Origin: an uncultured Planctomycetaceae bacterium
GTDB lineage: Bacteria > Planctomycetota > Phycisphaerae > SM23-33
Direction of reading: 5' to 3'
NCBI GenBank assembly: GCA_964642855.1
Contig: CAZXSK010000011.1
Span: 10,042-74,041 of the forward strand
Length of the DNA stretch: 64,000 nucleotides
Part shown: positions 11,655-43,975 of the stretch, piece by piece
Numbering within the stretch: position 1 is the stretch's first letter
Layout: each line of letters starts with the position of its first letter
The notes under the pieces: generated by a model
Told to the model about the DNA's origin: nothing
Seen by the model: the letters and a program-made list of their open reading frames with translations, nothing else
Databases searched by the model: none
Program-made: the position numbers and the translations under genes

Positions 11655-11687
11655 GACAAGCCTCTCCTGTCAGATCTGCCTACGTCG

Positions 11688-24367: not shown

Positions 24368-24750
24368 CGTCCTTGGCCTTTCTGGAAAGTTGTCGACTCA
24401 TCCCGGCCGGCTCTCGTCTTCCTTGTGAGAGTGCTCCGGCCATCTCTTGTGAGGTGCCTGGTCGGCGAGAAGGGAGTAAGTCCCTTCCACACCTTTCTAT
24501 AGACTACGCAACTGTCCTATCGGAGAAAAGCAGGATTTCGCGCAGCTTCTTTCATTCCCAGAAGCTAGAGGTCGTTGCGGAACACATCGCGCGCGCCGGC
24601 GCGCACCAGCCCGACCGGCCTGTCGATTTTCTGAGATATTTTATAACGCTTGAATCCAGATAACGTTGCGATGGTCCCCCGCGGTTTTTCGGAACATTCT
24701 GCGCGCGCAGAAAGCGGCGCGACGGGAGAGGGTGAGGAGAGTGAAAAACC
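24368..24750. promoter_or_regulatory. divergent intergenic control region (DUF4870 gene to the left, phage-like cluster to the right) with two perfect GC palindromes
   Basis: 383-nt non-coding region with an AT-richer segment (gagatattttataacgcttgaatccagataacg). It contains the perfect palindromes GCGCGCCGGCGCGC (24591-24604) and TTCTGCGCGCGCAGAA (24697-24712, 38 nt upstream of the first cluster ATG), and GAGGAGAG as Shine-Dalgarno sequence. Confidence 0.35.
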
Positions 24751-26313
24751 ATGGGATTCGATCTGACACACTTTGATGATTCGCAACTCCAGGTGGACTA
24801 CCTGGAGCATCTGGTGGACCGAAACGCCGCCGAGCGGGCCACAGCCATGAACAGGCTGTGGCAGTACTATCGCAACCCCCAACTGCCCGCCCCGGCGGCA
24901 CAGACGGACCCAGCCGGTACCGCGCGGCCTTACCGTCAGGCGCAGGAAGCAGGTCTTCCCCCTCGCATTACCGGCGACCGCGACGGCCTGTACGGCGGAC
25001 ACTGCCGCAAGGAAGTCGTCATCGAGAACGACATCGCCTGGCGGGTTCACACCATGGTCGACTACCTGTTCGGTACACCCCCGACCATCCGTTCGCTGGC
25101 CTGCAAAGGAACCCGGGCGTTGCAGATCGAGCAACTGATCTCCGGCGCACTGGAAGCCTCCGGCGGCGCCCGGTTGCTGCACGAACTGGCCGTCTTCGGG
25201 GCGGTGTATGGGTTCGTTGACATTGCACTCCGAACACCGGCCGGGGGGCCGGAGGACAGCGCCTCCACCCCGTCCCCCGCCTCCGGCCCGACCTCGGTGT
25301 CGAACCCCCGGCCGGTCCTTCCTTCCTCTGTCGATCCTGGAAAACGGTCGGACGAGGTCTTCCGCCGTGCAATGGCAGCCGTTCGCGCCCTGCAACTGGA
25401 GGCCGTCGAAGCTCCGCGCGTGGTGCCCGTACTCGAAGAGAACGACTATCGCCGGGTTCGCTACTGGATCCAGCGATACGTCAAACCCACCACCCGCATG
25501 AAGCGACGAACGCCCCGCTGGTTCCGTCTGCCGTGGACGCAGGCCGGGGGGGGAACACCCCAGGAGGTCGAGGTCGTCGAAATCCTCGGAGCCGGCTGGT
25601 GGCAGAGGTACGAGAACCGCCTGCTGGTCGAAGAAGGCCCAAACCCCCTCGGGTGCATCCCCGTGGTGCACATCCAGAATCTCTCACAGCCTTGCAGTTA
25701 CGCCGGCACGAGCGATGTCGAGCCCCTGATCCCCCTGCAAGACGAACTCAACACCCGCCTCTCCGACCGTGCCAGTCGGGTGACGTACCAGTCGTTCAAG
25801 ATGTACCTTGGCAAGGGGATCGACGACTTCCTCGAACGCCCCGTCGGGCCGGGGCAGATGTGGTCGACTTCCAATCCCGAGGCAACCATCGAGGAGTTTG
25901 GCTCCGACCAGGGCTCGCCCAGCGAGGACAGTCACATAGCCCAGGTGCGCGAAGCCTTGGACAAGGTCTCCGGGGTCACGCCTCTCGCGGCAGGACTGAT
26001 CCGCGGAAACGTCGGAAACCTCAGCAGCGCCACGGCCCTGCGTGTGCTGCTCAGCGGTCTGCTTTCCCGGACGGTGCGCAAGCGCGAAACCTTCGGCCAA
26101 GGCCTGGCAGAAATCGCGTCGCTGGTCCTGCACTGGCTGGATGTCTCAGGCATCTATCACACACGTCCCGACGAACGGCGCGTGGAGATCCACTGGCCCA
26201 GTCCGGTACCGGCCGACGAGGGGGAACAACTCCGTAACGCCCGGATCAAGGCCCAACTGGGCGTGCCCACCGAACGCATTCTTGCGGAGCTAGGGTACGG
26301 GGACATGTCCTGA
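24751..26313 (+). CDS. phage portal-like protein (first gene of phage-like structural module)
   Basis: 520 aa, acidic. It sits immediately upstream of the scaffold-like and capsid-like genes, which is the canonical portal position. There is no Walker A, so it is not a terminase. The assignment rests on position and size rather than a motif. Confidence 0.45.
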   Translation: MGFDLTHFDDSQLQVDYLEHLVDRNAAERATAMNRLWQYYRNPQLPAPAAQTDPAGTARPYRQAQEAGLPPRITGDRDGLYGGHCRKEVVIENDIAWRVHTMVDYLFGTPPTIRSLACKGTRALQIEQLISGALEASGGARLLHELAVFGAVYGFVDIALRTPAGGPEDSASTPSPASGPTSVSNPRPVLPSSVDPGKRSDEVFRRAMAAVRALQLEAVEAPRVVPVLEENDYRRVRYWIQRYVKPTTRMKRRTPRWFRLPWTQAGGGTPQEVEVVEILGAGWWQRYENRLLVEEGPNPLGCIPVVHIQNLSQPCSYAGTSDVEPLIPLQDELNTRLSDRASRVTYQSFKMYLGKGIDDFLERPVGPGQMWSTSNPEATIEEFGSDQGSPSEDSHIAQVREALDKVSGVTPLAAGLIRGNVGNLSSATALRVLLSGLLSRTVRKRETFGQGLAEIASLVLHWLDVSGIYHTRPDERRVEIHWPSPVPADEGEQLRNARIKAQLGVPTERILAELGYGDMS

Positions 26314-26366
26314 CCCGCTTCGCGCAAGAAGACCACCCAGACAGAAGTCACAGAAAGGAAACCACC

Positions 26367-26951
26367 ATGTCGGATGAACTGCGCACAGACTGCGAGCAGA
26401 AGGCGCCGGAGGCTTCCGAGCCCCAGGCCAGTCAGGACAAACTCGTGCCCGTCAGCGAGTCGATCAAGTACCGCCGCCGGGCCCAGCAAGCGGAAGGGGC
26501 CGCCGCAAAGCTCCAGCAGGAACTCGAAGATCTCCGCGGAGAACTGCAACAACGAGACGAGCAACTCGCACAGGCCGACGCCATGCGAGACGAAGCGTCC
26601 GGTCGCCTGCAGGCCTTGGAGAACGAGCGTCAGGCGGAACGGCTTCTTCTTGCGTCGGGCGCTACCGATACCGAGACGGCGCTGGTGCTACTCGGTCGGC
26701 GGCTGGACCTGAGTGGTGAGTTCGAGCCGGACGAGCTTCATCGGGCCGTTGAGCAACTGCTGGTCGACAAGCCCAGCCTCTGCGGCCGTGCTGTCGGCGC
26801 TCTGCCGTCGGCGACGGCGTCTGCTTCCGCCCAGGCAGGCGGTCCTGCCATGCAGCTCACCCAGGCAGCCCAGCGTGCCTCGAAGACGGGCGACCGACGC
26901 GATGTAGCTGAGTACCTCCGTCTGCGGCGGAGGGCATCGGCCTCGACCTGA
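26367..26951 (+). CDS. phage scaffolding-like protein (coiled-coil, Q/E/R/A-rich)
   Basis: 194 aa. Heptad-like stretch LQQELEDLRGELQQRDEQLAQADAMRDEASGRLQALENERQAERLLL. Located between the portal-like and capsid-like genes. Confidence 0.4.
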   Translation: MSDELRTDCEQKAPEASEPQASQDKLVPVSESIKYRRRAQQAEGAAAKLQQELEDLRGELQQRDEQLAQADAMRDEASGRLQALENERQAERLLLASGATDTETALVLLGRRLDLSGEFEPDELHRAVEQLLVDKPSLCGRAVGALPSATASASAQAGGPAMQLTQAAQRASKTGDRRDVAEYLRLRRRASAST

Positions 26952-27071
26952 CCCAGCAGGGCACGTCCTGAGCATTGCGCGGTGCGATGACTCAGCCCCC
27001 GGCAGCAGCCGGACGGAGGAACACAATACCACCCCGCGGGAACAAAAGCCCGCCAGAGACAGGAGAACACC

Positions 27072-28232
27072 ATGGCCTTTACGGGCAAAGCAACCTATGA
27101 CGCCGGCAGCGCCCTGCCGGAAATCGCAGAAGACGTGGCCGACCTCGTGAGCATCGTCTCACCGTACGAGACCCCGCTGCTGGATCACTTCGGTGACCCG
27201 ACCCGCCCGGCTACGAGCACCTACCACGAATGGATCGAAGACCAACTGCTGCCCAACAGCGACACCATCGACCAGACGTCGTGGTCCGATGCATCGGCCG
27301 ACGCCACGTTCGGCGTGGACCACGTGTCCTACTTCCGCGTGGGCGACCAGGTCCGGCCCAACGGCAGCAGCGAACTGCTGCTCGTGACGGCCGTCGATAC
27401 CGCCACTGACCAGGTCACCGTGGTGCGTGGCTACGGCGGTACCACGCCCGAGGATCTCACCGACGGCCAGACGCTGCACATTCTGGGCAATGCTGCCCTG
27501 GAAGGCGACGACGCTCCCGAGGCGCGGTTCTCTACCCGCGTGCGGAAGGGCAACTGGACGCAGATTTTCACCGCCGGCGTTCGCGTCAGTGGGTCCGACC
27601 TGGCCGTCAAGAAGCTTTCGGTGTCCGACGAGCTGGACTACCAGAAGCAGGAACGCCTGCGGGAACTGCTTCGCGATCTGGAGAGCACCGTCATCAACGG
27701 CGCCGCACCGGAGAGCACGCCGCAAGGCTCATCGACCGTTCGTCGCACGATGCGCGGGATCATTCCCTCCATCAACACCAACGTGTTCCAGCCCGGCGTC
27801 GACAGCGTGCCCGGAGGCGGGGACCTGTCCGAATCGCAGCTGAACTACTGCCTGCGACGCATCTGGGAGCAGTCGTCCAGCCGCATCGACACGATTGTTG
27901 TCAACGGCTACCAGAAGCGACGGATCAACAGCTTCGTGCTTTCCTCCCGCAGCTTCGGGTCCGAGGACGAGCGGTTCGTGGACCTGGTGAACATCTACGA
28001 GAGTGACTTCGGCGTCTGCCGGGTGATTCTCTGCCGATCGATGCCCGCAGACAGCGTCCTGCTGCTCGACAGCTCGCGTGTCAGCGTGCTGCCCCTGGCC
28101 GGGCGAAGCATGCAGTACAAGTCGCTGGCGTCGACCGGTGACTACGAATCCGGCGAAGTCCTCGGCGAGTACACCCTCGAGCTTCGCAACGAGAACGCCC
28201 ACGGCCTGATCACCGGCCTGGACATCAACTGA
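27072..28232 (+). CDS. phage major capsid protein-like (HK97-fold-like, inferred)
   Basis: 386 aa, AGGAGAA Shine-Dalgarno sequence. Size, position after portal and scaffold, and composition are typical of major capsid proteins. No maturation protease gene is present, which fits a scaffold-dependent capsid. Confidence 0.5.
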   Translation: MAFTGKATYDAGSALPEIAEDVADLVSIVSPYETPLLDHFGDPTRPATSTYHEWIEDQLLPNSDTIDQTSWSDASADATFGVDHVSYFRVGDQVRPNGSSELLLVTAVDTATDQVTVVRGYGGTTPEDLTDGQTLHILGNAALEGDDAPEARFSTRVRKGNWTQIFTAGVRVSGSDLAVKKLSVSDELDYQKQERLRELLRDLESTVINGAAPESTPQGSSTVRRTMRGIIPSINTNVFQPGVDSVPGGGDLSESQLNYCLRRIWEQSSSRIDTIVVNGYQKRRINSFVLSSRSFGSEDERFVDLVNIYESDFGVCRVILCRSMPADSVLLLDSSRVSVLPLAGRSMQYKSLASTGDYESGEVLGEYTLELRNENAHGLITGLDIN

Positions 28233-28304
28233 GGTCCCTGACCCGACGTGCGCCCCGGAGCGTTTCCGGGGCGCACCGGGCGCTTGCATACGCGGAGTAT
28301 CGAC

Positions 28305-28958
28305 ATGGAAACCTATTGCCAGGATCGCGACCTGTTGCGGCTGGAACCGACGCTGTTCCTCGCCGGCGGCGCCCCGGGACAGGAACTGACGCGTCACGAC
28401 GGCGTCGACGTCAGCGGGACGACCCTTACCTGCAGCTCCGCCGACTTCACCGAGTCGGGTATTGCGCCAGGAATGGTCGTCACGCTGTACACCGACCATC
28501 CCGGAGAAGGCGTCGGGCTGGAGATCATCTCTATCGATGGCCCGACCCAGCTGACCGTTTCTGTACTTCGGCCCCGGACCGACCTGCCTGCCATCCCGCC
28601 CCAGCCATGCACCGACGCATCGCTCCTCGTCCATACCTACCAAGCCCAGATCCAGGCGGTCAGCAGCAACCTGGGTGAGAAGCTCCGCACGCTGGCCGAA
28701 GCCGAAGGGGTCGACATATCAGACTTCGGTCCGTCGTGGCAACTCACGCATGCGGTCACCTGTGGCGTGCTGGCAGAGGTCTTCACCAGCCGCGCAGAAC
28801 AGGGGCAGGTCGACGACACGACGTGGCTGAAAGTTCGCCACTACGGCGACGAATTCCGGCGGTCTCTCGTCCAGATCCGACTCACCGTGGACGCAAACGG
28901 TGATGGCATCGCCGAACGCACTCGTTCGCTGGGCAATGTCCGCCTCCGGAGGACGTAG
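28305..28958 (+). CDS. phage-like structural protein (head completion/connector candidate)
   Basis: 217 aa. ATG at 28305 after GGAG. It immediately follows the capsid gene. Confidence 0.45.
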   Translation: METYCQDRDLLRLEPTLFLAGGAPGQELTRHDGVDVSGTTLTCSSADFTESGIAPGMVVTLYTDHPGEGVGLEIISIDGPTQLTVSVLRPRTDLPAIPPQPCTDASLLVHTYQAQIQAVSSNLGEKLRTLAEAEGVDISDFGPSWQLTHAVTCGVLAEVFTSRAEQGQVDDTTWLKVRHYGDEFRRSLVQIRLTVDANGDGIAERTRSLGNVRLRRT

Positions 28959-28960
28959 TC

Positions 28961-29389
28961 ATGTCTGGCCTCTATGATCTGCTGGCCAATATCCTCGGGG
29001 TGCTCCGGAGTGTTCCTGACCTCCGCGCGGTCTCGCTGGCCGGTGAGCCGACCAGCCGAGAGGTGCCCCGTGCCTCGGTGGCTGTGCTCTCGCGCGAGAC
29101 CTTCCCCCCGGATGACTCCGCGACGGGGATCTGGCATCGCACGACGATACGCATCGCGATCGTCACCAACGCGGGACGCACCGACGCGGGCCTCGCAAGA
29201 CTCTCCGAACTCGCTGAAACCGTTGCCCAGGCTCTTCTCGGCGACCCGCACCGGGGCGGAACCTGCAGCGACCTGCCCGTCGGGAGGGCGACCGAGATCG
29301 AATGCTTCGAGACCCTCGACGTCGACGAGCCCGGACGCGTGGCCGTGACCCTGGTCGTTCGAACGCACAGCGAAAGCGAGGTGGCGTGA
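28961..29389 (+). CDS. phage head-tail joining/tail-completion-like small protein
   Basis: 142 aa. GGAGG 6 nt before the ATG. Size and position are typical of head-tail adaptor proteins. Confidence 0.45.
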   Translation: MSGLYDLLANILGVLRSVPDLRAVSLAGEPTSREVPRASVAVLSRETFPPDDSATGIWHRTTIRIAIVTNAGRTDAGLARLSELAETVAQALLGDPHRGGTCSDLPVGRATEIECFETLDVDEPGRVAVTLVVRTHSESEVA

Positions 29390-29793
29390 TGGCCCGCTAC
29401 AGCCGCATCGAGTCCGTCCAGTTCGATGGCGTGGTGCTGCCCCTGCCGGTGTCGGTGAAGACCAACCGTTCGGCTGCCGTCGCGCCGCGGTGCGACGACA
29501 CCCGTCTTCACGAGTCCAGCGTACAACTGCACGACGCTTGGGTAACGGCCGAGTTCACCTGCCGAGGCCTGGCCGTCGCCGACAGCCTGTCTCTCGGTCA
29601 ACAGGGCGACTGCGTGATCGATCTTCGCGACGCTTCCGGCTCAGGAGGGAGACGGATGACGCTTCACTCCGCCGTCGTCGTGGACATCCGGACAAGCTGC
29701 GACCAGCGCCAACCGGCGGAGACCGTCGTGCGACTTCGCGCCCAGGCCGACGATGTTCACACCACCCCCTACCAGACGGAGGTGACGCCATGA
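29389..29793 (+). CDS. phage-like small structural protein
   Basis: 134 aa. ATG overlaps the upstream TGA as TGATG. Confidence 0.4.
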   Translation: MARYSRIESVQFDGVVLPLPVSVKTNRSAAVAPRCDDTRLHESSVQLHDAWVTAEFTCRGLAVADSLSLGQQGDCVIDLRDASGSGGRRMTLHSAVVVDIRTSCDQRQPAETVVRLRAQADDVHTTPYQTEVTP

Positions 29794-30155
29794 TCCTCTT
29801 CGACCAGCAGGACCTGTACTCGTCGGGGCCCGCGTCGCTCCAGCCGGACAGTTGGCAGCGGCAGACGGTCCGAAGGGGCTTCGCCGGCCAGGATGGCGAG
29901 TTGCTGCTCGACCTCGGCCGCCGGTCGCGCGCGATCGTCCAGACCGGCCGGTTGCAGGCCGACACAATCGACGCTCTCGATTCGCAGATCCAGGCTATCG
30001 AAGCCGCCGCCGATGGCGACGTCTGCACGTTGACCGGTCCACACGGCCGGGAATTCCCCAACACCATTCTCGAAGGGTTCTCGCTGCAGACGCCCGTTCG
30101 CACCGGCCGGGGGCTGTGGTGCGATTACCGCATCGAATACAGGCAACTGCGATGA
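29790..30155 (+). CDS. phage-like small structural protein
   Basis: 121 aa. ATGA start/stop overlap with the upstream gene. Confidence 0.4.
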   Translation: MILFDQQDLYSSGPASLQPDSWQRQTVRRGFAGQDGELLLDLGRRSRAIVQTGRLQADTIDALDSQIQAIEAAADGDVCTLTGPHGREFPNTILEGFSLQTPVRTGRGLWCDYRIEYRQLR

Positions 30156-30886
30156 CGCCCGAACTGCACACCGACGATATCCGCCTCCTTTCGGCCACGC
30201 CGAACGGCAGCCCGCCGGGTTGGCTTTTTGAGTACGAGACCGGCCACGCCAGCCGCGCCCACCAGCTGTACGTCGACGGGCGCCTGGCAGACTGGGCCCA
30301 GCCGGGGGAGCCTCGCACGTTCTTCCTGCCCGACACATCCCGCGCCGCACGGATCACCGTTGTCGCCGTCGACGTTCCCTTCATGCGGCGAGACCTGTCC
30401 CGGTTGCTGCCGCCTTACGCAGCAGCGCCGACATGGACGAACGGGTACCTCCTGACGCGCGCCCCGACCCTTCGCGACGGCGACCAGGTCGCGATCCTCG
30501 CGCGAGAGCAAGGCAGCGACCCGTCGGCCGACACCGTCGTCGACCGACAGATCGCCTGGCCTGCAGATCGGCCTCGGTGGGCGTTCGGCGAGGACGCCTT
30601 CGGCCGGGGAGCATTTGGCTGGGGCGGCTCGCGGGCGCCCGGCATGGGCGAAGCGCACTTCGGCGCGGGTCCGTTCGGCTTCGACGAAGCCGGCCTGTCG
30701 CTCGTGGCGGATCTGCAGGAATCAGGCCGATACGTCCTGACCCCCGCCAGCCTGTCCATCGACGGCACGATCGTTCGCGCCGACCCGCAGACCGTGGACG
30801 TCGAGCTGCCGCCCCCGCCGGGGGGCTCTCTCTCCGTGACGGACTACGACTCCCAGACCCGAACCATCACCCTTTCCCTTTCCTGA
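30152..30886 (+). CDS. phage-like structural protein with Gly-rich segment
   Basis: 244 aa. ATGA overlap with the upstream gene. Contains FGRGAFGWGGSRAPGMGEAHFGAGPFGFD. Confidence 0.45.
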   Translation: MTPELHTDDIRLLSATPNGSPPGWLFEYETGHASRAHQLYVDGRLADWAQPGEPRTFFLPDTSRAARITVVAVDVPFMRRDLSRLLPPYAAAPTWTNGYLLTRAPTLRDGDQVAILAREQGSDPSADTVVDRQIAWPADRPRWAFGEDAFGRGAFGWGGSRAPGMGEAHFGAGPFGFDEAGLSLVADLQESGRYVLTPASLSIDGTIVRADPQTVDVELPPPPGGSLSVTDYDSQTRTITLSLS

Positions 30887-30894
30887 GGAACACC

Positions 30895-31728
30895 ATGACT
30901 GAACTCTACCCGACCGACGCCGACCTCAACGCCCTGTCCGGGGCCACCGATCCCGAGCAGGAAGTACTCTTCCTGCCCATTGGCGAGTCGCCGTATCACA
31001 CGAGCTTCTACCGAATGCTCTACCGGCTGCTGGACGTCTCCCGCCGGGCCGGCGACCTGCGCGTGTACAAGGACGGAGATCTGACCTTCGGCGTCAGGCC
31101 AGGTCGCTGGATGAACGGCCAGGCCGAAGTCGTCTACGTCGGCAGCGAAGCCAATGCGCTGGCCAATAACCTCGACAATTACATCTACCTGCTGCCGGAC
31201 GGGACGCTCACGACCAATACCACCGGCCTGCCCGATCCGGTCGACCAACCCCACCTGCCCCTCGCGAAGATCTCCACCAGCCTGGGCACCTACGCCCACG
31301 GCGACATCACCGACCTGCGAGGCCGGGCGCTGTACCGCCCGTGCGGCGGGCTTGTCGGCGACCTGGAAGCCCAGGCCGTCTCCCTCATACCGACGCTGTC
31401 GATCACCGCAGCCGCCGAAGTGTCCGACGTGCGAACCCTCTCGGTGCAGGTCTGCGACGCTGCCGGCTCGGACCAGGCTGGACGGTTCGTGATCCGCACC
31501 TGGTTGGCGGAGTCCGAGTTCGCCGCCCCGTCGGCGACGGGCAACAGCGTAGCCGTCTCGGCCGGGTCTGCACTTCGCCAGATCCAGGCCAATGCGGACT
31601 ACGAGCTGATCAGCGACAGTTCCGGCCTGGTCTCGCTCGATGTCACCATCACCTCCACCGCCACCCGCTACCTCATGGCCGAGATCGACGGGAAGATCTA
31701 CTCCAGCGGCCCGGTGGATTGGGCGTAG
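30895..31728 (+). CDS. phage-like tail/structural protein
   Basis: 277 aa. GAGGA before the ATG. Ser/Thr/Ala-rich beta-type composition. Confidence 0.45.
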   Translation: MTELYPTDADLNALSGATDPEQEVLFLPIGESPYHTSFYRMLYRLLDVSRRAGDLRVYKDGDLTFGVRPGRWMNGQAEVVYVGSEANALANNLDNYIYLLPDGTLTTNTTGLPDPVDQPHLPLAKISTSLGTYAHGDITDLRGRALYRPCGGLVGDLEAQAVSLIPTLSITAAAEVSDVRTLSVQVCDAAGSDQAGRFVIRTWLAESEFAAPSATGNSVAVSAGSALRQIQANADYELISDSSGLVSLDVTITSTATRYLMAEIDGKIYSSGPVDWA

Positions 31729-31753
31729 CCCCCGCTTCCGAAAGCGACTCAAC

Positions 31754-33874
31754 ATGACCATCTATCATCACATCGACAATTCTGTTCCGGACTTCGGTGA
31801 GTGGGACTCCGTCACCGGCGCCTCCTCGGGGGTGTTGACCCAGACGCCGGATGCAAACTGGCCGGAGCAGCCCGGCATGGGCCTGCGGATCGACACGGCA
31901 GCGCAGGCAGTCGCCCACGCCGACAAGTCACTTGGGCTTACTCTTGCACCGGGCCAGCGGCTTACGTGGACCTTCTCGCTCAATGCACACGGAAGCATTT
32001 CACTGGCTGTGTTCGCTATTCTCACGGCGTCGGCGAGGACAGCCCTCTGCGTGCTGCAGGAGCTCGGAAACCAAGTCCGCTTCAGCGCAGCGAGGGATCC
32101 CGGTGGGTACGAGGACCTCGTCGCCGACGTGCACGTGGGATGCTGGCACCGGTTCTCGCTGAGTATCCGCAGAGCATCCGCGCCCGGGGTAGCAGACGGG
32201 GAAGTCACGCTCTGGCAGGACGGCGTCGTTCGGGATCATGCGAGCATCGAGAACTACAACAGCACGAGCGGGCTTCTTGCGCTGACGTGCGGCAATCTCG
32301 TGGCCGTCACCGCAGCAACGGAACTCGACATCGACGACCTGGTCTTTTCCGATGACCGGCCATCGCCCGGGTCTTCTTCCACAGACATCAGCGCCCCATC
32401 GACCTACGGCACCATCCTGCTTATTCCCGATTCCGAGCAAGGCTACCTCTTCGGCGAACAGTGCGCACAGATCGCAGGCGTTCCGCGGGCGAACATCCTT
32501 CATCTCCCGGGGCTGTCGACCTCGGAGCAGCTTGCCTCCTACAGCGACTTCCAGCAGCAGGTCGAAACGCCACTGGCGGAGTTCTTCAGCAACTGGCCCG
32601 ACCTCGCCGACCGCTGCTGCTGTTTCCTGCTCGGACCGGGCGTGCCCGGGTCTTTTCTGCACGAAGGGGTCGCCCACTCCACCGCTTCACGATTGATGCG
32701 CTTTGGCCAGCCGTTTGTCGGAAGCGTCGCGAACCCGCTGATCTGCTTGCCTCTCGGGCGTCTCGACCCCGCGACGCTTCGATCGCACGGGATCCATCTC
32801 GCCGCCCGGATCGACGGGCCCACCTTCAGCGAAGCGTGCGATCTTCTCCACCGAGGGGTGGACTGCACGTCCGATGCGATCCCGCAGGACAACCGCTTCT
32901 GCTGCGACGATGGAGACGTTCGCGCGTCCCTGGCCGCCCAGGCGCTCCGACTTGACGCGGACCCACTGGACCTCCTTGAAAACGACGCGATCACCTGGAC
33001 GCAGACCGACCCATCGGGCTGGGGAGAAGGCGGCGCCCGCGCCCTGTTCGCCGATCTCCGGGCTGGCTCGCTGACCGCGCTGCGAACGACCTCCGACGCC
33101 GTCAGCGATGCGATCCACACGCGCGGATACGCAGCGGGGGTCGGATCCGTCGGAGCTGCCCTTGCACTCGACCCCCACCGATTCCTGACGATGTTGCATC
33201 TCGGGGCAACCCTTGCGGAAGCGGCGGCTGTTTCCTCGCCGACGCTCGATGACGGACTGGTGCTGGCGGGGTATCCGATGGCGACGCCGCAACTTCCCCG
33301 AGGCGGGGCGACGATCTACCGCGGCAGGGGGTCGATCCGCCAGGTCGATTGGTCCCAGCCTGTGGCCTATCTGCGGGAGGGCCAGACGCAGGTCACGCTG
33401 CCCAACCCGCTGGATGGCGCCGGCGACCACGTCCTTGCCGCCCGCCGCGTGTCGCAGGCCGGCCTGGAGGAGCAAAGCACCCACGTTGTCGCCATCGCCC
33501 GCATCGACGAAGACGGCCAGTTGCTTCCGCCACCGTTGCCCGTGCCGGCCGACCTGTCGTTCACCCCGCTTTCCGCAACGTCGGGGCTTTTGCACTGGAC
33601 GAACCAGTCGGAGCCGGGCTTCGCCTTGCCGGACGAATACCAGGTTCTGGCAGCCAATCGGGCGGACTCGCTGGCCGGCAGCGACCCTGTACTCACCGTA
33701 CCCGGTTCCGAGAGCGCCCCCTTCCTGGTGGCTGAGCTGGACCCGCTGCCAGAAGGTCCCTGGCTTGCGGTCCGTGCCGTCGCCCAAGGCCGAGCCGGGC
33801 GTCTCAGCAAGCCGCTGCGAATCCAGGCCAATCCGACACTGCCCGCACCTGCAAGCCTTGGAGGTCCCTCATGA
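31754..33874 (+). CDS. large phage-like tail fibre / receptor-binding-like protein with C-terminal fibronectin-III-like domain
   Basis: 706 aa. The N-terminal region resembles a concanavalin/LamG-like jelly-roll (EVTLWQDGVVRDHASIENYNSTSGLLALTCGNL). The C-terminal about 100 aa (DLSFTPLSATSGLLHWTNQSEPGFALPDEYQVL...) fit an FN3 pattern. Confidence 0.5.
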   Translation: MTIYHHIDNSVPDFGEWDSVTGASSGVLTQTPDANWPEQPGMGLRIDTAAQAVAHADKSLGLTLAPGQRLTWTFSLNAHGSISLAVFAILTASARTALCVLQELGNQVRFSAARDPGGYEDLVADVHVGCWHRFSLSIRRASAPGVADGEVTLWQDGVVRDHASIENYNSTSGLLALTCGNLVAVTAATELDIDDLVFSDDRPSPGSSSTDISAPSTYGTILLIPDSEQGYLFGEQCAQIAGVPRANILHLPGLSTSEQLASYSDFQQQVETPLAEFFSNWPDLADRCCCFLLGPGVPGSFLHEGVAHSTASRLMRFGQPFVGSVANPLICLPLGRLDPATLRSHGIHLAARIDGPTFSEACDLLHRGVDCTSDAIPQDNRFCCDDGDVRASLAAQALRLDADPLDLLENDAITWTQTDPSGWGEGGARALFADLRAGSLTALRTTSDAVSDAIHTRGYAAGVGSVGAALALDPHRFLTMLHLGATLAEAAAVSSPTLDDGLVLAGYPMATPQLPRGGATIYRGRGSIRQVDWSQPVAYLREGQTQVTLPNPLDGAGDHVLAARRVSQAGLEEQSTHVVAIARIDEDGQLLPPPLPVPADLSFTPLSATSGLLHWTNQSEPGFALPDEYQVLAANRADSLAGSDPVLTVPGSESAPFLVAELDPLPEGPWLAVRAVAQGRAGRLSKPLRIQANPTLPAPASLGGPS

Positions 33875-35607
33875 GCTGCACCTGGACGCTGCCGAAGATC
33901 CCGATCACCGCGACGGTCCTTCGTCCGCTTCCGCCGCGTATCCTCGTGGCTGGCCGCAGGCGATATGACCTGCAGGCACTCGGATGGCGGGTCGAAGGCC
34001 CCCCGCTGTTCGGACAGGCCGAGATCGTTCTGCGTTCGCCGCTGGCTGCCGGCCGAGACGTCCGGCTGGAGCAGGCGCACCGGTTGCCGGCAATCGGGGA
34101 AGAAGTCGTCCTGCTTCCGGGCGATCGGCAGGACTCGTGGCGCTTCCCCGGCATCGTTGTCGAGCACCGAACCGGTATCGACGACGGCGAGCGATTGGTC
34201 GCCGTGCTCAAGCATCGCCTGGGTGTGCTGCTGGACATTCATGCGATCGGCCGATGGGTTCAGACTCCCGCCGGCCCGGTCGACCGATCGGACCTGCCTC
34301 TGCACTTCAACACCGGCCCGGAGACACTTGCCACCCCGGACGTCCACGAGACCTCGTCAGGCAGAGTGACTCGAAGGTTCACCTCCGCCCCTGAAGGTAC
34401 GCGATGGACATTCGCCGATGCACTGTCCTACGTGATCGCTGTCTTCGTGCCCGAATCGGTCGACGTGCCTTCCCGCGAAGAACTGCTCGACCTCTGTGGC
34501 CGGCGCGAACTCCTGCCTGCCCGCTTTGAGGGGCGGGGTCTCTGCAGCGTGCTGGAAGAACTCTCCGCAAGGGCGGGTTTGGTCCTCCGTGGTTCACGAA
34601 GCGGCCGCGGCCTGGTGATTCACAAGGCCGGCGAAGGCCGAACGCGCCAGGTTCGGCTGCAGGCTCCCGGGGGCGACTTTCACCCCTCCACGACCAACCT
34701 GTGGAAGGCGGAGATCGTCACGCGCACCCGCCCTCGAAAGCCCGGCGTATTGGCCATCGGGCAGAAGAAGCGATTCGAAGTGACCCTGCAACTCCAGCCC
34801 GGATGGGATCCGTTGGACGAGACCTCGCGATGGCGCGATACGTCGCGGGAACTCGCCTCGCCCGGCGCCCGGCTGGAGTCTGTGTACAGGCGATGGGTGC
34901 TCAACGAGCACGGAGCGTACAGTCGGCCTCCGCTGGCTCTCGATGCGACTGACCTGTCGACGATCTCAGCGGAGGACTTCCAGGAGGTCAAGGCCAGGCG
35001 ATGGCTTCCGTGCATCTCGTGCGATGCGCTGGGACGGTCGCTCGGGGTCGTCGTCGAGGTCAGCACCGATGGCGGTTCGACCTACGCCCCCTGGCCGGGA
35101 CGCGTGCGCGTGTCCCGCGAGCAATGCGCCATCTTCCTGGACGATCCGTCGCTGCCCGCCGACTACTTCGCCGCGGCCGTCGAAGGGCTCGTCCGGGTCC
35201 GTGTCACCGGCTGCCTGGAAGGCGACCTGCCGCTGATCTGGCACGAGCCCGGCCGGGACGGCGACGGAGTCGAAATCCTGCGTGACCAGGAGGCGCGTTG
35301 GGCTGCGGTGCATTCCAGCAGCATCTTCTCCGGCGAGGGCGCCGTCGGGCCGACAGATCAGGCCGATGACACCGGGCGACTGCAGGATCTGGCCGCGGCC
35401 TGTGTTGCCGATCAAAGCGAACGGTCCCGTTCGTCCTTGACCCTCGGCTGGGTCGACGGCGGTTACCACGTCGGCGACATCATCGAACGTGTCGAGGGCA
35501 GATCCCTCGACCTGCCCTCGGCACGCGGAGCCGGCGGGCGGATCGTCGGCGTCCGTCACGTGTGCGGCGACACCCAGACCACCACCCTCATCGTGGAGCA
35601 AGCATGA
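33871..35607 (+). CDS. large phage-like tail/baseplate-like protein
   Basis: 578 aa. ATGA overlap with the upstream gene. No enzymatic motif was recognised. Confidence 0.5.
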   Translation: MSCTWTLPKIPITATVLRPLPPRILVAGRRRYDLQALGWRVEGPPLFGQAEIVLRSPLAAGRDVRLEQAHRLPAIGEEVVLLPGDRQDSWRFPGIVVEHRTGIDDGERLVAVLKHRLGVLLDIHAIGRWVQTPAGPVDRSDLPLHFNTGPETLATPDVHETSSGRVTRRFTSAPEGTRWTFADALSYVIAVFVPESVDVPSREELLDLCGRRELLPARFEGRGLCSVLEELSARAGLVLRGSRSGRGLVIHKAGEGRTRQVRLQAPGGDFHPSTTNLWKAEIVTRTRPRKPGVLAIGQKKRFEVTLQLQPGWDPLDETSRWRDTSRELASPGARLESVYRRWVLNEHGAYSRPPLALDATDLSTISAEDFQEVKARRWLPCISCDALGRSLGVVVEVSTDGGSTYAPWPGRVRVSREQCAIFLDDPSLPADYFAAAVEGLVRVRVTGCLEGDLPLIWHEPGRDGDGVEILRDQEARWAAVHSSSIFSGEGAVGPTDQADDTGRLQDLAAACVADQSERSRSSLTLGWVDGGYHVGDIIERVEGRSLDLPSARGAGGRIVGVRHVCGDTQTTTLIVEQA

Positions 35608-36161
35608 CCGATATCGATCCATACACAGACCGTCTCCAGTGGCTTGCCCAGGCAGGCGGCGTTCGCGGCGTGCAACTCGTGCGCATCGGCGAGGTCGACA
35701 GCGGCAACTGCTACCAGGCCCAACCCGCGGAGTTCGACTCGTCGGGCGAGCTTGCGACCATCGACGGGTCGACGCTGACGGTGACCAACATCGCCGAGAC
35801 GCCGGACAGCGCAGGCCAGGTTCCCGCCGGCAGCCACGCATGCGCCGTCGACGTCGAAGGCCGGTGGATCGTGCATCTCTCGCCGCCATCCACCAGCGTG
35901 TTCCCCGCGAAGGTGATCTCCGCCGATGGCGGGGCGACCTACACGGTTCGCGAGCAGCAGATAAGTGGTACGGACACGTTGTCCGACGCAGCCGGGGCCG
36001 TTGATGTCCCGGCACGCAATCTCTCGGAACTCACCCTCGGGCCCGGGGGGGCAGTCGATGTCGGCGCGATCGTACTGGTCTGCCCGAGACCCGACGCAGC
36101 CAGCCCCGCGACGCTTCGGTACCTCTTCGACCATCCCGTCTACGCCAGGTACCTGGACTGA
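35604..36161 (+). CDS. phage-like structural protein
   Basis: 185 aa. ATGA overlap with the upstream gene. Confidence 0.45.
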   Translation: MTDIDPYTDRLQWLAQAGGVRGVQLVRIGEVDSGNCYQAQPAEFDSSGELATIDGSTLTVTNIAETPDSAGQVPAGSHACAVDVEGRWIVHLSPPSTSVFPAKVISADGGATYTVREQQISGTDTLSDAAGAVDVPARNLSELTLGPGGAVDVGAIVLVCPRPDAASPATLRYLFDHPVYARYLD

Positions 36162-36164
36162 CCC

Positions 36165-37202
36165 ATGACCTATGACCCGACATGGAGCCAGGGCGACGCC
36201 ACCGGCCTGCAGGGCGGGGTACATTCCGTCCGCGCCACGGACGTCGGCGAGATCGCAGCTGCGATCAACCGCAGGCGGGAACTGACCTACCAGGACGCGC
36301 AGGACTACTCCGGCGGGATCCAGGCCGGCAGGTGGATCGACACGTCCGTGATCGATGCAGCCACAGCTCCGCCCTTCGAGAACCTGCGAAGCTCGTGGAC
36401 GAGCGACATTCTCTCTGCGCCCGTGGGCACGCTGGGGGGCAACCCGCCGTCGCCGACATGCATGGACTGGCTGTGGCCTGTCGCTGACGCGGACGAGGGC
36501 AAGGTGATCGTCGCCTCTGCGCCCGGGGCAGGGGAGGTCGGGCTGTTCGCAAAGATCAACGGCGGCAGCGACTGGACCGACCCCACGCTGGCGGCCGGGC
36601 AGACCGCCGTCCGGACGGTGCACGTCAACGAACTCCGCGATGCAGCTGCGATTGTCTCTCGCGGCCGGTGGACGCTCCCTGTGTACCTGGCCGGGGGGAT
36701 CTTCTCGATCATGCCCGACACGCCGTGGATCGGAGACTCGGTCGCCAACAACGGCAGCGACGAACTCCGCGCGGTCGGCTTTGCCTGGCTGCGGTCGCCG
36801 GCCACGCCGTCGCAGGGGCTTGTGAACGTGACCGTCCGCGACGCCAGCGAACTGGAGCTGACCGCGTCGGACGACTGCAGCCTGGCTATCTACCGGTGCT
36901 GTCGCGCCATCGATTTCCTCGCCGACCCGCCGACCTGGAACGAGTATGCCCCGTTGGGATCATCGGCGTGGGCTTTGCCTGGCGGAACGGGCGCGGGCGA
37001 TGCGGTCTACCTCGGGCAGGTCTCCTTGGCGGCCGGGGTGCCGGGCACGCTGAGCAACTCCGCACTCGCCCTGGGGCTGCAGGCGATGGTGGACGGCGAG
37101 CCCCAGAACTTCCTGATCCGTCGGACCGACGCCAGCCCGGACACCATCGACGTATCGGCCACCGCACGAATCGAATTCGACTTGAACACACCCCCTAACT
37201 GA
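36165..37202 (+). CDS. phage-like structural protein
   Basis: 345 aa. Starts 4 nt after the upstream stop. Confidence 0.5.
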   Translation: MTYDPTWSQGDATGLQGGVHSVRATDVGEIAAAINRRRELTYQDAQDYSGGIQAGRWIDTSVIDAATAPPFENLRSSWTSDILSAPVGTLGGNPPSPTCMDWLWPVADADEGKVIVASAPGAGEVGLFAKINGGSDWTDPTLAAGQTAVRTVHVNELRDAAAIVSRGRWTLPVYLAGGIFSIMPDTPWIGDSVANNGSDELRAVGFAWLRSPATPSQGLVNVTVRDASELELTASDDCSLAIYRCCRAIDFLADPPTWNEYAPLGSSAWALPGGTGAGDAVYLGQVSLAAGVPGTLSNSALALGLQAMVDGEPQNFLIRRTDASPDTIDVSATARIEFDLNTPPN

Positions 37203-37215
37203 GGAAGGAGCAACC

Positions 37216-37488
37216 ATGGAACCGTTGACAGGAATCACCGACTTTGCAGGACTCGGAGCGGCCGGGCTGATGGGAGCGATGTGGCTGTGGGAGCGAAAGC
37301 TCAGCCGCGACCGCGACCAGCAGCTCGTGCAGTCTCACGAGCGGATCATGCGGGACGAGCAGCGGCTCGACAAGCTCACCGAGGTCGTCGAGCACAACAC
37401 CACCGCGCTGACGCGGTTCGAGGAGGTCCAGCGGCTGCAGACCGACGTCCTGCAGCACATGCTCAAGGAGCGCGGCCATGTTGCGTAG
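37216..37488 (+). CDS. small single-TM coiled-coil protein (holin- or i-spanin-like candidate)
   Basis: 90 aa. Strong GAGGAAGGAG Shine-Dalgarno sequence. One TM helix (GLGAAGLMGAMWLW) followed by a charged coiled-coil. Confidence 0.45.
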   Translation: MEPLTGITDFAGLGAAGLMGAMWLWERKLSRDRDQQLVQSHERIMRDEQRLDKLTEVVEHNTTALTRFEEVQRLQTDVLQHMLKERGHVA

Positions 37489-37972
37489 GCGACTGCTTGT
37501 CTGTTCGTCGTGGGTCTGCCTGCTGGCCGGGTGCGGCGCGCCTCCGGCGACGGTCGATCTGCTGTCGGTCGCGCGGGAGGGTGTCGCCCGGGCAGGCGAC
37601 CAGCAGGAGCAACTGCACGAGCAGAAAATCCGTCAGCTGGAGGGCAATTTGGACGCCCTGGACCGCGCATTCGACGCCGACGTGCGGCTGGTTGCTTCCG
37701 GCGGGGTCACCGCTGCCGACGGCGAGGTACTGGAATTGACGCCCGAGTGGGTGATCTCGTCCCGCAAGGGCTACGCAGCCGGGCGGTCGATCATCCAGGA
37801 GCAGATCCGCCGGGAACTGCAGGACCACGCCCTTCGCCGGGAGAACCTCCACGCGGTCGACGACGCGTTGGAGATGGCCCGGAGGCTGCTTGTCCGCCAG
37901 CAGTTGCTGCTGGGGCGGATGGGCGTTTCGTGGGAGCGGCTGGAAAGGAGGATCCGCGATGACCAGCGATGA
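37478..37972 (+). CDS. small lipoprotein (o-spanin-like candidate)
   Basis: 164 aa. Lipobox LLAGC. Overlaps the upstream gene by 11 nt. Coiled-coil-rich. Confidence 0.45.
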   Translation: MLRRRLLVCSSWVCLLAGCGAPPATVDLLSVAREGVARAGDQQEQLHEQKIRQLEGNLDALDRAFDADVRLVASGGVTAADGEVLELTPEWVISSRKGYAAGRSIIQEQIRRELQDHALRRENLHAVDDALEMARRLLVRQQLLLGRMGVSWERLERRIRDDQR

Positions 37973-38225
37973 CTTCCCCCGCCGTATCGTTGCCCTCGCC
38001 GTGGAGCGTGCCTGGGACCAGTGGGCACGCGAGCACCCGTCCCTGGCTGCGGCGCTTGACGACGTGCAGTTGATCAACCAGGCAGCCGAGTCGGTCCGCC
38101 ACACTCCCGCCTACCGCCGCGCGGTCGAGACGTTCCACCGCGACGAGCAGACGCTGATGCTCTTCGAGCGTCTGTGGAGCCTGGCCGGGCCGGCGGTTCG
38201 GGAGCTTCTCAGCGCAGCCGGATGA
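37959..38225 (+). CDS. small hypothetical protein, last gene of phage-like module
   Basis: 88 aa. ATG at 37959 overlaps the upstream gene's 3' end. Confidence 0.35.
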   Translation: MTSDDFPRRIVALAVERAWDQWAREHPSLAAALDDVQLINQAAESVRHTPAYRRAVETFHRDEQTLMLFERLWSLAGPAVRELLSAAG

Positions 38226-38676
38226 CCGCCGATTGCGTGTCGTTGTACGGGTCTCCGCGCCGGACGCGCACCGTGACCTCGAACGGGTACGGCAGCGTTT
38301 CCGCCCGGAGGCCCGGAGCATATTCCACCCGCACGGGCTCGTAGCGATCGAGCGGGACGGCCTTGCCGGGTGAAAGCTCGATCGACTTGCCTCCCGCGTC
38401 GGCGATGCTGATGCCCGCGGCGTCCAGCGCGATCGGCAGGCCGGAGGTGTTCTCGACTTCGACGATGAGCTTCTCCAGCAGCGGCGGGGTGGTGGTGTCG
38501 GCCACTTCGATGCCCCGCAGCGTGACCTGCCAGCCGGTCTTGCGGAGGGTCAGCCTGCGGGTCTGGACTTCCCACATTCCGTGCTCATCCTCGAACTCGA
38601 CGATCGCCGGGACCGTCCGATGAGACAGGCATCCGCCGGCGAGGAAGACAAGCAAAACAGTCGCGAGAGTTCGCAT
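38209..38676 (-). CDS. lipoprotein, hypothetical
   Basis: Signal peptide plus lipobox MRTLATVLLVFLAGGC. GGAGG Shine-Dalgarno sequence. Convergent with the phage-like module and overlapping it by 17 nt. Confidence 0.55.
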   Translation of the reverse strand: MRTLATVLLVFLAGGCLSHRTVPAIVEFEDEHGMWEVQTRRLTLRKTGWQVTLRGIEVADTTTPPLLEKLIVEVENTSGLPIALDAAGISIADAGGKSIELSPGKAVPLDRYEPVRVEYAPGLRAETLPYPFEVTVRVRRGDPYNDTQSAVIRLR

Positions 38677-38738
38677 GGTTGGCCTCCGGCCTGGTTGGGT
38701 GGTTTTCTTCGCGCGTTGGTCCGGCTACGATCATAGCC

Positions 38739-39107
38739 ATGCGATCACGGTTCGTCATCCAGATTCACACCGGCCACGGACCGACCCACTACGACCTGAT
38801 GGTCCGCCGGGGCGACGCGCTGGCGACGTGGCAGTTCGCGGATGACCCTCGGGCTGCAGATCGCGGCGGGTTGGCGTGCGAGCGGATCGCCGATCATCGT
38901 CTGGCGTACCTGGACTACGAAGGCCCGGTCAGCCGGGGACGGGGGGAGGTCCGGATTGCGGACGCAGGGTCGTGCGAGTTGCTGGAGGACGGTGACGATC
39001 GTTGGCGGGTGAGGTTTGAGGGGCGGGAGCTTCGCGGCGAGTTCCGGCTCATCCGCAGCGGCCAGAGCGAGGGCTGGTTGCTGAGCGAGCTTGGGGGCAG
39101 GGCCTAG
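38739..39107 (+). CDS. stand-alone DNA ligase D 3'-phosphoesterase (LigD-PE) domain protein
   Basis: FVIQIHTGHGPTHYDLMVRRGDALATWQF...HRLAYLDYEGPVS...GEVRIADAGSCELL aligns with the LigD-PE signature (FVVQ.H.A..LHYDFRLE...HVEDHPL.Y..FEG.IP...). About 122 aa. Confidence 0.65.
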   Translation: MRSRFVIQIHTGHGPTHYDLMVRRGDALATWQFADDPRAADRGGLACERIADHRLAYLDYEGPVSRGRGEVRIADAGSCELLEDGDDRWRVRFEGRELRGEFRLIRSGQSEGWLLSELGGRA

Positions 39108-43808: not shown

Positions 43809-43975
43809 GGCGCGTCTCCTGTCAGGGGTGTTTTGCGGCGAAAGACGCGCATTTTCCCCGATCGGATGCCTCGGGCAAGGAAAAAGAAGGCCCGTCCGTT
43901 GACGGTTGACTTTCCCCCCGGCCCCACGATACACAGGTAGCGAGTCCCAACCCCCTGTGGAGGCGGGAAACAACG

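Follow-up and report, generated by a model that had tools for sequence, protein, structure and literature searches.

The gene transfer agent (GTA) of the alphaproteobacterium Rhodobacter capsulatus, RcGTA, is encoded by a compact head-to-tail cluster of ~14–15 kb without integrase or replication genes. This cluster holds the small and large terminase subunits, a prohead protease, a tape-measure protein and a capsid protein of the HK97 family. RcGTA is chromosomally fixed, inherited vertically under purifying selection and regulated by the host, and its fibre and receptor-binding parts are variable. Part of its functions (lysis, head spikes, tail fibres, regulators) reside at separate loci (PMC5026251). 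Here we describe a locus with a similar genomic behaviour in a 64,000-nucleotide stretch of DNA (the window, to which all positions refer unless a locus is named) from an uncultured Planctomycetaceae bacterium of the class Phycisphaerae (assembly GCA_964642855.1, contig CAZXSK010000011.1). At positions 24751–38225, 16 consecutive genes (g1–g16) form a phage-like head-and-tail cluster, hereafter the module. The comparisons reported below strongly support its domestication, i.e., that it is a host-owned, phage-derived virion module. The initial annotation had left open whether the locus is a GTA-like or otherwise domesticated system or a defective prophage. Synteny and selection bear out the former, and the ratios of nonsynonymous to synonymous substitutions (dN/dS) and the intact open reading frames (ORFs) speak against the latter.

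Compared with RcGTA, the module has no terminase, protease or recognisable tape measure, it encodes a putative scaffold, an SU10/DUF5309-type capsid protein (the RcGTA capsid protein belongs to another Pfam family) and a Mu-like hub, and it resides in another phylum. The two clusters are not homologous, which points to independent domestication. BaGTA (Bartonella), VSH-1 (Brachyspira), Dd1 (Desulfovibrio), VTA (Methanococcus) and PBSX (Bacillus) are likewise host-kept, phage-derived particles without self-propagation, but they have other phage ancestors and other hosts, and PBSX kills and does not transfer DNA. We know of none among these with an SU10-type capsid or a terminase-less cluster. 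Capsid-forming phage-inducible chromosomal islands (cf-PICIs) resemble the module in that they encode their own capsid, portal and connector and obtain the missing virion functions from another element. However, cf-PICIs are mobile and carry an integrase, a replication module and a small terminase but no tail, whereas the module sits at a fixed site, includes a tail hub and fibres and has none of these genes. The Ccm protein of Staphylococcus aureus pathogenicity islands (SaPIs), a capsid homolog of one element that is used against another, parallels the phage-borne capsid copy described below.

The capsid family is shared with Kuravirus SU10 and the other PF17236 phages (E value of 1e-84 to the Pfam model). 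In contrast to SU10, which is a podovirus, the module encodes a hub of the kind seen in long-tailed phages: the N-terminal ~260 residues of g11 resemble Mu gp44, P2 gpD, T4 gp27 and VgrG (Foldseek E values of 3e-9 to 1e-3), and the weakly gp43-like g7 upstream of g11 adds to the likeness to Mu. Unlike in baseplates of the Mu and T4 type, neither a sheath nor wedge proteins resembling gp25 or gp6/gp7 could be recognised, and g11 has an additional C-terminal half of ~300 residues. Literature searches returned no description of the module or of any Planctomycetota GTA. To our knowledge, only a handful of independent domestications of phages into GTA-type particles have been described, none of them in Planctomycetota. 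The novelty thus lies in a domesticated phage particle with an unusual predicted combination of head and tail (SU10-type head, Mu-type hub) and no terminase at the locus, and we regard the module as a candidate new lineage of host-owned GTA-like particles in Phycisphaerae.

The 16 ORFs of the module span ~13.5 kb, all lie on the + strand, start with ATG and are intact. The distances between neighbouring ORFs range from −14 to +120 nt, with start-stop overlaps at 29389 (TGATG) and at 29790, 30152, 33871 and 35604 (ATGA). The dense packing, the common orientation and the overlaps at these five positions had been reported before and were reproduced exactly by the ORF analysis. The GC content of third codon positions is 0.72–0.87 in each ORF, and no Walker-A motif is present in any of the 16 proteins. 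The module is flanked by two M16 peptidases, a MurD-like ligase, purB (−) and DUF4870 (−) on the 5′ side and by a LigD_N protein and fur on the 3′ side, as assigned by Pfam. This agrees with the cellular flanks of the initial annotation (purB, DUF4870, lipoprotein, fur), the lipoprotein signal being read by eye.

A scan of one genome per species yielded 43 loci, onto which every gene of the window was mapped. In ~20 species (group A), the whole g1–g16 series is found in the same order adjoining purB, and usually also murD and the two M16 peptidases, at purB identities of just 60–77% among these species. Two further complete group-A loci with precomputed Pfam annotation have the same layout, with ORF lengths that match those of the window. 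The downstream gene d3 is conserved in group A wherever the locus extends that far. Group B comprises the Sedimentisphaerales and relatives, with a capsid identity of 59–65% and a shorter version of the module. Where the loci extend far enough, its site is different and recurs as well: tetratricopeptide-repeat (TPR) and DinG-like helicase genes lie upstream in five loci, and a gene for a 191-amino acid (aa) protein and a spore-photoproduct-lyase-like (SPL-like) gene lie downstream in up to ten. Group C consists of two loci (L037 and L041), both with a HlyD-domain gene upstream. One copy of the module is located mid-way along a 2.4-Mb contig.

The divergence of the module follows that of the host. 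In Mantel tests with 16 group-A species, distances of purB correlated with those of the capsid (r = 0.71) and portal (r = 0.72) proteins, and none of 2000 permutations reached these values. Mean pairwise identities were 0.70 (purB), 0.76 (capsid) and 0.62 (portal), which puts the conservation of the capsid protein on a par with that of a core enzyme. Between closely related pairs, dN/dS was 0.05–0.45 for every module gene. In the first pair, dS was 0.08–0.27 for the module genes and 0.12–0.22 for the flanking M16, murD and purB genes; in the second, the corresponding values were 0.19–0.58 and 0.34–0.41 (one purB dS value, an artefact of a truncated match, was disregarded). Taken together, the fixed sites, the co-divergence with the host, the low dN/dS and the parity of dS indicate vertical inheritance under selection, and not prophage turnover or decay. 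By these comparisons, the host lineage has kept the module, intact and under selection, from a time before many Phycisphaerae species diverged. The module itself has none of the functions required to propagate autonomously. Vertical conservation with purifying selection had been suggested earlier as the mark of a GTA-like locus, and a strain-specific or pseudogenised locus as its opposite. Synteny with purB, the Mantel tests and dS parity agree on the former. The earlier argument that intact, translationally coupled ORFs speak against simple decay also stands, as all 16 are intact and under purifying selection.

Two loci deviate from the common arrangement. In L030 (5308–11155), three intervening ORFs, of which two have the opposite orientation, split the portal and capsid genes, and in L038 (11980–14214), g8, g9 and g10 are not detectable. 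These rearrangements indicate that the module is not immutable.

Table 1. Positions of the module genes, the upstream regulatory region and neighbouring features in the window; positions of the 17th gene are those of the loci named.
Feature	Position	Strand	Basis or remark
Regulatory region	24586–24712	.	Alignment of portal-upstream regions of 18 species
Degenerate palindrome copy ATCGCGCGCGCCGG	24586–24599		Upstream of g1
A/T-rich tract	24625–24648		Between both palindrome copies
Perfect 16-bp palindrome TTCTGCGCGCGCAGAA	24697–24712		Upstream of g1
Conserved ribosome-binding site GGTGAGGAGAG	24731–24741		Directly before portal ATG
g1, portal, SPP1 gp6-like, 520 aa	24751–26313	+	PF05133 4e-12; phrog_104 7e-23
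g2, coiled-coil scaffolding candidate, 194 aa	26367–26951	+	Position between portal and capsid genes
g3, major capsid protein, SU10_MCP/DUF5309, 386 aa	27072–28232	+	PF17236 1e-84; phrog_1328 1.5e-74
g4, conserved, head-completion/adaptor candidate, 217 aa	28305–28958	+	Position after capsid gene only
g5, tail-terminator-like, 142 aa	28961–29389	+	Weak: phrog_4204 'tail terminator' 0.079
g6, tail-tube candidate, 134 aa	29389–29793	+	Size and position only; no family or PDB match
g7, conserved tail protein, 121 aa	29790–30155	+	Weak: PF07157 DNA_circ_N (Mu gp43 N-terminus) 0.025
g8, conserved tail protein with Gly/Phe-rich segment, 244 aa	30152–30886	+	No family match
g9, tail fibre, 277 aa	30895–31728	+	AlphaFold2 and Foldseek
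g10, receptor-binding-type, 706 aa	31754–33874	+	N-terminal concanavalin-like lectin/lyase domain
g11, baseplate hub, 578 aa	33871–35607	+	Mu gp44/P2 gpD/T4 gp27/VgrG fold, N-terminal ~260 residues
g12, conserved, central-spike candidate, 185 aa	35604–36161	+	Position after hub
g13, strongly conserved, baseplate or enzymatic (?), 345 aa	36165–37202	+	Conservation
g14, single-pass membrane protein, holin-like candidate, 90 aa	37216–37488	+	Gly-zipper transmembrane segment, nearly invariant
g15, lipoprotein, 164 aa	37478–37972	+	11-nt overlap with g14
g16, helical protein, final module gene here, 88 aa	37959–38225	+	Orthologs
17th gene, L011	20576–20782		
17th gene, L050	17883–18113		
17th gene, L051	17465–17704		
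17th gene, L053	17936–18154		
155-aa ORF	38209–38676	−	No Pfam match; N-terminus LVFLAGGC resembles lipoprotein signal, by eye
Stand-alone LigD_N (3′-phosphoesterase, DNA-end processing)	38679–39107	+	Pfam
d3, 249-aa protein	39104–39853	−	No Pfam match; conserved in relatives

The head genes were assigned by family searches, which confirmed the portal and capsid identities first proposed for the 520-aa and 386-aa proteins (Pfam and PHROG agree on both). The g1 protein matched PF05133 with 46.3 bits (cutoff 25.5), where the match covers only positions 173–393 of the 416-position model, and its orthologs in the purB-linked loci are 54–64% identical. The g3 protein matched PF17236 with 284.9 bits (cutoff 24.1) over positions 11–291 of 292. 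More than 4900 g3 homologs were found among the scored candidates, many of them on contigs of 0.1–1 Mb. The best 120 are nearly all 382–388 aa long and, two near-identical relatives aside, ~70–77% identical to g3; those with a named source almost all carry labels of Planctomycetota or Phycisphaerae metagenome-assembled genomes. Across the host copies, 89 columns of the capsid alignment are invariant. One capsid homolog (P0054) is labelled Vicinamibacterales (Acidobacteriota) in one source. It is apparently the same as L008, which is labelled Planctomycetota, and the discrepancy is probably a conflict of binning or naming rather than an occurrence in another phylum.

The scaffold-like reading of the 194-aa g2 is consistent with its coiled coil and its position, but its family matches were weak (crescentin rod; phrog_2303 head scaffolding, 0.029). 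From these features, g2 would be a putative scaffolding protein. The g4 gene was found in 42 of 48 compared loci, spanning all three sub-lineages and always located after the capsid gene, and its product had no Pfam, PHROG, NCBIfam or PDB match.

The tail genes g5–g13 were placed mainly by order, conservation and predicted fold, as Pfam, PHROG and NCBIfam scans gave no significant match for any of g4–g16. When the pooled orthologs of g4–g8 (105 sequences) were scanned singly, a weak signal of the phrog_4204 type recurred in five members (best 0.0036), presumably the g5 orthologs, although the pooled scan does not specify which members matched. The g7 gene is conserved in groups A and B, and g8 is conserved in both and also in the prophage-like locus L052 (6e-38). 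Profile searches against PDB sequences with g4, g6, g9, g11, g12 and g13 returned nothing, and the lectin domain of g10 gave the sole match. An all-against-all hhalign comparison of the module gene families revealed no internal paralogy.

The tail proteins left uncharacterised in the initial annotation include the baseplate hub. In the AlphaFold2 model of g11, residues ~20–260 have a predicted local distance difference test (pLDDT) score of ~85–95, and the C-terminal half (~300 residues) is of low confidence. The model was built on an alignment of only five sequences, as the protein-database query gave five proteins, and is thus usable in its N-terminal half only. Foldseek found 38 matches in the PDB at E ≤ 1e-3, nearly all of them hub proteins. 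The best were the MuSo2 43-kDa tail protein (3cdd, 2.9e-9) and Mu gp44 (1wru, 3e-7), followed by hubs of extracellular contractile injection systems (eCIS) and Photorhabdus virulence cassettes (PVC), VgrG of the type VI secretion system (T6SS) and T4 gp27. In the predicted structure, the N-terminal half of g11 is therefore a hub of the long-tailed-phage type, and this fold traces the tail to long-tailed phages rather than to a podovirus, even though the head is of the SU10 type. A podovirus reading, prompted by the SU10 capsid family, was dropped for this reason.

The g9 model (pLDDT 87.9) matched the tail fibre of cyanophage A-1(L) (8kec, 1e-4). Against BFVD, it matched uncharacterised Caudovirales proteins, receptor-binding proteins and Mtd-N proteins, with E values down to 2e-7. 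The N-terminal anchor of g9 (~150 aa) is among the best-conserved parts of the module. Its C-terminal domain, in contrast, is swapped between lineages, being Ig-like here and DUF2793 or PF24146 in others. Fold prediction, which had been proposed as a check, thus recovered a hub and a fibre in the two tail proteins modelled (g11 and g9).

In g10, residues 15–187 matched glucuronan lyase (2zzj) in the PDB profile search (2.2e-5), Pfam gave Polysacc_lyase at 0.017, and the middle domain is weakly TIGR03790-like (0.0039, below the cutoff). This gene is the most variable of the module, with 29–40% identity between species, and its dN/dS of 0.45 was the highest in the single close pair measurable for it (L005–L008). 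The distance between the starts of g9 and g11 ranges from 1.4 to 4.4 kb among species. Variability and spacing of this kind would be expected for genes of receptor-binding proteins. Together, the g9 C-terminus and g10 (positions 31300–33874) make up the hypervariable part of the module. The two genes after the hub are well conserved. The g12 protein is 46–53% identical in 14 of 15 aligned group-A orthologs and 40% identical in L038 (mean column identity 65%). The g13 alignment has a mean column identity of 63% and 59 invariant columns, including H153-x-N-E-x-R158. Neither g12 nor g13 had a PDB or family match.

The 3′ end of the operon encodes small membrane-associated proteins. The small transmembrane protein and the lipoprotein noted there before are both present and can now be described as a conserved pair, g14 and g15. 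The transmembrane segment of g14, FGAAGLMGAMWLWER(K/R), is kept in 18 orthologs, and the protein had no significant family match. All 13 g15 sequences have a lipobox-type motif ending in Cys (mostly L-A/G-G-C), followed by a conserved ATxDLIxVAR motif. Both are candidates for a role in release, and no endolysin was recognised in the module. The g16 orthologs are 38–53% identical in nine loci. In four relatives, g16 is followed by a 17th gene encoding a holin-like protein of 72–79 aa with two hydrophobic (transmembrane) segments. The window has no 17th gene, and the opposite-strand gene for the 155-aa protein is found there instead.

The functions missing from the locus were sought by several approaches. 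No terminase was found in the window, where the module was scanned with Pfam, PHROG and NCBIfam and the flanks with Pfam, and Terminase Pfam families are absent from the precomputed annotation of three full loci. A jackhmmer search from one phage large terminase (TerL) found no terminase in 886 kb of host loci, the sensitivity being limited by the single seed. In 14 of 16 measured loci, the portal gene begins 175–467 bp past purB/DUF4870, and such spacers leave no room there for a terminase. Integrase, replication and lysogeny-control genes were likewise not found in the module (Pfam, PHROG and NCBIfam) or in the Pfam-scanned flanks. No terminase, integrase or tRNA is located within 24 kb upstream or 26 kb downstream (a search for direct att repeats was not made), and scans of the entire window for tRNA genes and Rfam families gave no match. 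There is also no sheath-sized module protein with a family match. The earlier statement that terminase, integrase, replication and lysin genes are missing in and beside the module therefore holds at the locus by family scans. Since none of the genomes examined yielded a terminase close to the module, packaging would depend on a factor supplied in trans, or the particles would have another role.

No virus with the module was found in IMG/VR. Among 2.9 million IMG/VR contigs, the module was found on one only (L047), which is host-like. The nearest true viral capsids in IMG/VR are ≤40% identical, with no detectable homologs of the module portal and tail genes, and the capsids of cultured phages are ≤33% identical to g3. 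The presence of the module explains why such contigs can be miscalled viral in virome catalogues. The prophage-like L052 (ena:ERZ795025 NODE_1029, 39 kb) encodes a Gp13-like capsid protein (PF20036) together with homologs of g6–g9 (g6, 8e-18), of the g10 N-terminus and of g11. Phages with the tail lineage of the module thus exist, and this tail also circulates with another head.

A host-type capsid gene is also carried by a phage. The 41-kb IMGVR_UViG_3300033145_000895 (L045, L049) has its own small terminase (TerS), TerL, portal (phrog_156) and capsid (phrog_334, 373 aa), and encodes RecT, an exonuclease, a Holliday-junction resolvase, a methyltransferase and a primosomal protein. In its early recombination region, between the exonuclease and resolvase genes (L045, 5517–8183 region), it carries an additional SU10-type capsid gene for a protein of 386 aa. 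This copy nests within the purB-linked host clade (80% identity to L018, L012, L013 and L014), keeps 85 of the 89 host-invariant columns and has a dN/dS of ~0.1 relative to host copies. It is directly preceded by an ORF of 92 aa, whose last 33 residues match the basic C-terminus of the host scaffold g2 (E value of 5e-8). In well-studied scaffolding proteins, the C-terminal segment is the capsid-binding part. Judged by this conservation, the phage appears to maintain a functional host-type capsid copy together with the C-terminal segment of the scaffold, which hints at a phage–host conflict. Two other viral contigs, L046 and L048, have related capsid genes (61% and 55% identity), and their annotated neighbours are replication and methyltransferase genes only. 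A search of IMG/VR with the L045 copy as query gave no further close copies.

In its genomic behaviour, the module resembles a GTA. It is a cluster of phage-derived structural genes for head and tail, with a portal, capsid, hub and fibre identified among 16 co-oriented, coupled genes, no genes for self-replication, integration/excision or lysogeny control were found in or beside it, and it is inherited vertically under purifying selection. We consider 'GTA-like' a reasonable label by analogy, and we do not file the module as a member of the GTAs because a terminase of its own was sought at the locus and not found. The proposed system would be expressed as a single transcription unit from a host-type regulated promoter ahead of the portal gene. 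The head would consist of an SPP1-type portal, the scaffold and an SU10-type capsid protein of HK97 fold, connected by a neck to a non-contractile tail with a Mu-type hub at its end and fibres with diversifying receptor-binding parts. The terminal membrane protein and lipoprotein would probably help release, and the terminase and a wall hydrolase would be encoded elsewhere. The most likely use of such a particle would be GTA-like carriage of host DNA between related cells; particle production, DNA content and DNA delivery are what we infer here.

A GTA-like particle with its terminase and lysin encoded elsewhere is the reading that we favour, as moderately probable. Several observations weigh against it. 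Every characterised GTA cluster known to us has the large terminase in the main cluster, and the headful-packaging terminase that a GTA would own was not found here; neither were a prohead protease, a tape-measure protein, a recognisable tail tube or an endolysin identified at the locus. Nine of the 16 proteins (g2, g4, g6, g8 and g12–g16) had no significant family or fold match, and those of g5 and g7 were weak. The regulatory cassette described below is not specific to the module. The missing terminase would also fit a fixed, helper-dependent capsid–tail system that uses the terminase of an infecting phage, either for anti-phage interference, in which packaging would be diverted into heads encoded by the host, or as an altruistic disperser of host DNA that is triggered by infection. 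The phage with its own TerS, TerL, portal and capsid that also holds a host-type capsid copy, preceded by the scaffold-derived 92-aa ORF, points in this direction, and there is a precedent in the satellite SaPIbov5, which encodes Ccm, a capsid-protein homolog that remodels the helper capsid. However, there is one clear phage case, with L046 and L048 less clear and no further close copy in IMG/VR. Moreover, a full tail with fibres would be superfluous for interference, the neighbouring genes include none of a defence type (no search of the PADLOC library was made), and the terminase may simply be elsewhere in the genome. We therefore regard a helper-dependent system as unlikely. Slightly less likely still is its more specific form, in which a terminase-less system would be activated by the packaging motor of an invader, resulting in abortive interference or export of host DNA, and phages would counter it with the captured capsid and scaffold tail.

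Particles without a role in gene transfer, such as PBSX-like killers or bacteriocins, or particles for adhesion or delivery in which DNA is incidental or absent, would also be compatible with a locus that has no terminase. Fast evolution and domain swapping, as seen in the receptor-binding region, would be expected of particles that target competitors, and the terminal hub shares its fold with tailocins, eCIS and T6SS. R- and F-type pyocins have lost the head, and a tail-only killer would be expected to lose it as well. In the module, in contrast, the portal, scaffold and capsid genes are present and are the best-conserved parts, which sets it apart from tailocins and eCIS, and no sheath or toxin gene was recognised. 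We judge this explanation to be improbable, to about the same degree as the helper-dependent system. A functionless remnant of a decaying prophage would also show the lack of terminase, integrase, replication and lysin genes, but it is hard to reconcile with 16 of 16 intact ORFs of ortholog-matching lengths, with the low dN/dS of every gene, and with a site and gene order that are conserved across species and a divergence that tracks the host; the equal dS of the flanks speaks against independent recent insertions. It is very improbable. Marginally more improbable still is an active temperate phage of which only the late region is seen here, with its other genes beyond the examined region. The gene order is indeed that of a tailed-phage late operon, but both flanks are cellular and syntenic across species, no phage family occurs in the 21 Pfam-scanned window ORFs outside the module (the others were read by eye), there is no tRNA or integrase, and no IMG/VR viral genome contains the module. 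Decay and an active prophage are effectively excluded.

The module appears to be of ancient origin and to extend over Phycisphaerae, and public data contain thousands of capsid clusters. If particles are made, host-controlled DNA exchange could gain a new lineage, in an environmental group that is abundant; alternatively, the particles could indicate that modules of capsid and tail genes are retained for a purpose that does not require a packaging motor of their own. If the helper-dependent system were the true one, it would amount to a new kind of phage-derived system for immunity or altruism, and one conserved throughout a bacterial class. The phage with the captured capsid gene provides a direct experimental handle on the purpose of the module. 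The genus Poriferisphaera presumably belongs to Phycisphaerae. The cultured strain Poriferisphaera heterotrophicis ZRK32 is reported to release hexagonal phage-like particles without lysis, which were ascribed to an extrachromosomal phage of 21.9 kb (PMC10945688). This release indicates that suitable cultures exist.

The region upstream of the portal gene is conserved and contains a paired palindrome (Table 1). In group A, its core TGCGCGCGCA (≤1 mismatch) lies ~157 and ~47 nt ahead of the portal ATG, with a density of 1.8 per kb upstream compared to 0.05 per kb elsewhere in the loci (36-fold). A metagenome scan for the palindrome pair TTTGCGCGCGCAAA revealed an excess at a span of 120–122 bp (34 of 120 loci) over a 3-nt-periodic background. 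About 28 of these 34 cassette loci share the internal A/T-rich core, as judged by eye, and just two adjoin a portal gene. The others (among L054–L173) flank unrelated genes, including those of an enolase, a kinase, an ABC ATPase and a dehydrogenase, and no Rfam family or tRNA was found beside the metagenomic cassettes. This location next to unrelated genes suggests a general host element that is used by the module and is not specific to it. The cassette may be either a paired operator/promoter or a unit resembling a miniature inverted-repeat transposable element (MITE). Its use as a marker of a module regulon, by which unlinked genes such as a terminase could be found, was ruled out because it adjoins unrelated genes. 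A scan for promoter and terminator consensus sequences gave matches at chance level only.

Genes of the DNA-repair type recur next to the module. A LigD_N gene lies just past it in several lineages (L006, L021, L033, L050 and L051 among them), the DinG-like and SPL-like genes bracket the group-B module, and RecJ follows in L050. This recurrence could be a coincidence or reflect a functional link.

In the flanks, Pfam was applied to 21 ORFs, i.e., all those of ≥418 aa except four named ones, and the remainder were judged by eye from the translation. The ORFs read only by eye include 7531–8757 (408 aa, PilC-like), 42816–43973 (385 aa) and 48068–50062 and 50095–51981 (664 and 628 aa), the last two of which are ABC transporters by this reading. 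The 21 scanned ORFs belong to cellular families or to none and have no phage family among them; they include a T2SSE secretion ATPase, an amino-acid permease, a PmbA/TldD peptidase, oxidoreductases and a glycosidase domain. A cluster resembling type IV pilus and type II secretion genes is located at 6516–12913 (−), ~12 kb upstream of the module. Its T2SSE ATPase (9855–11654) was confirmed by Pfam, and the PilT-like, PilC-like and pseudopilin-like ORFs were recognised by eye. The product of 10–1416 has a PEP-CTERM sorting signal (Pfam E value of 2.3e-4), and that of 61115–61717 ends in a PEP-CTERM-like tail, seen only by eye. Such PEP-CTERM proteins are typical cell-surface proteins of these bacteria and are unrelated to the module.

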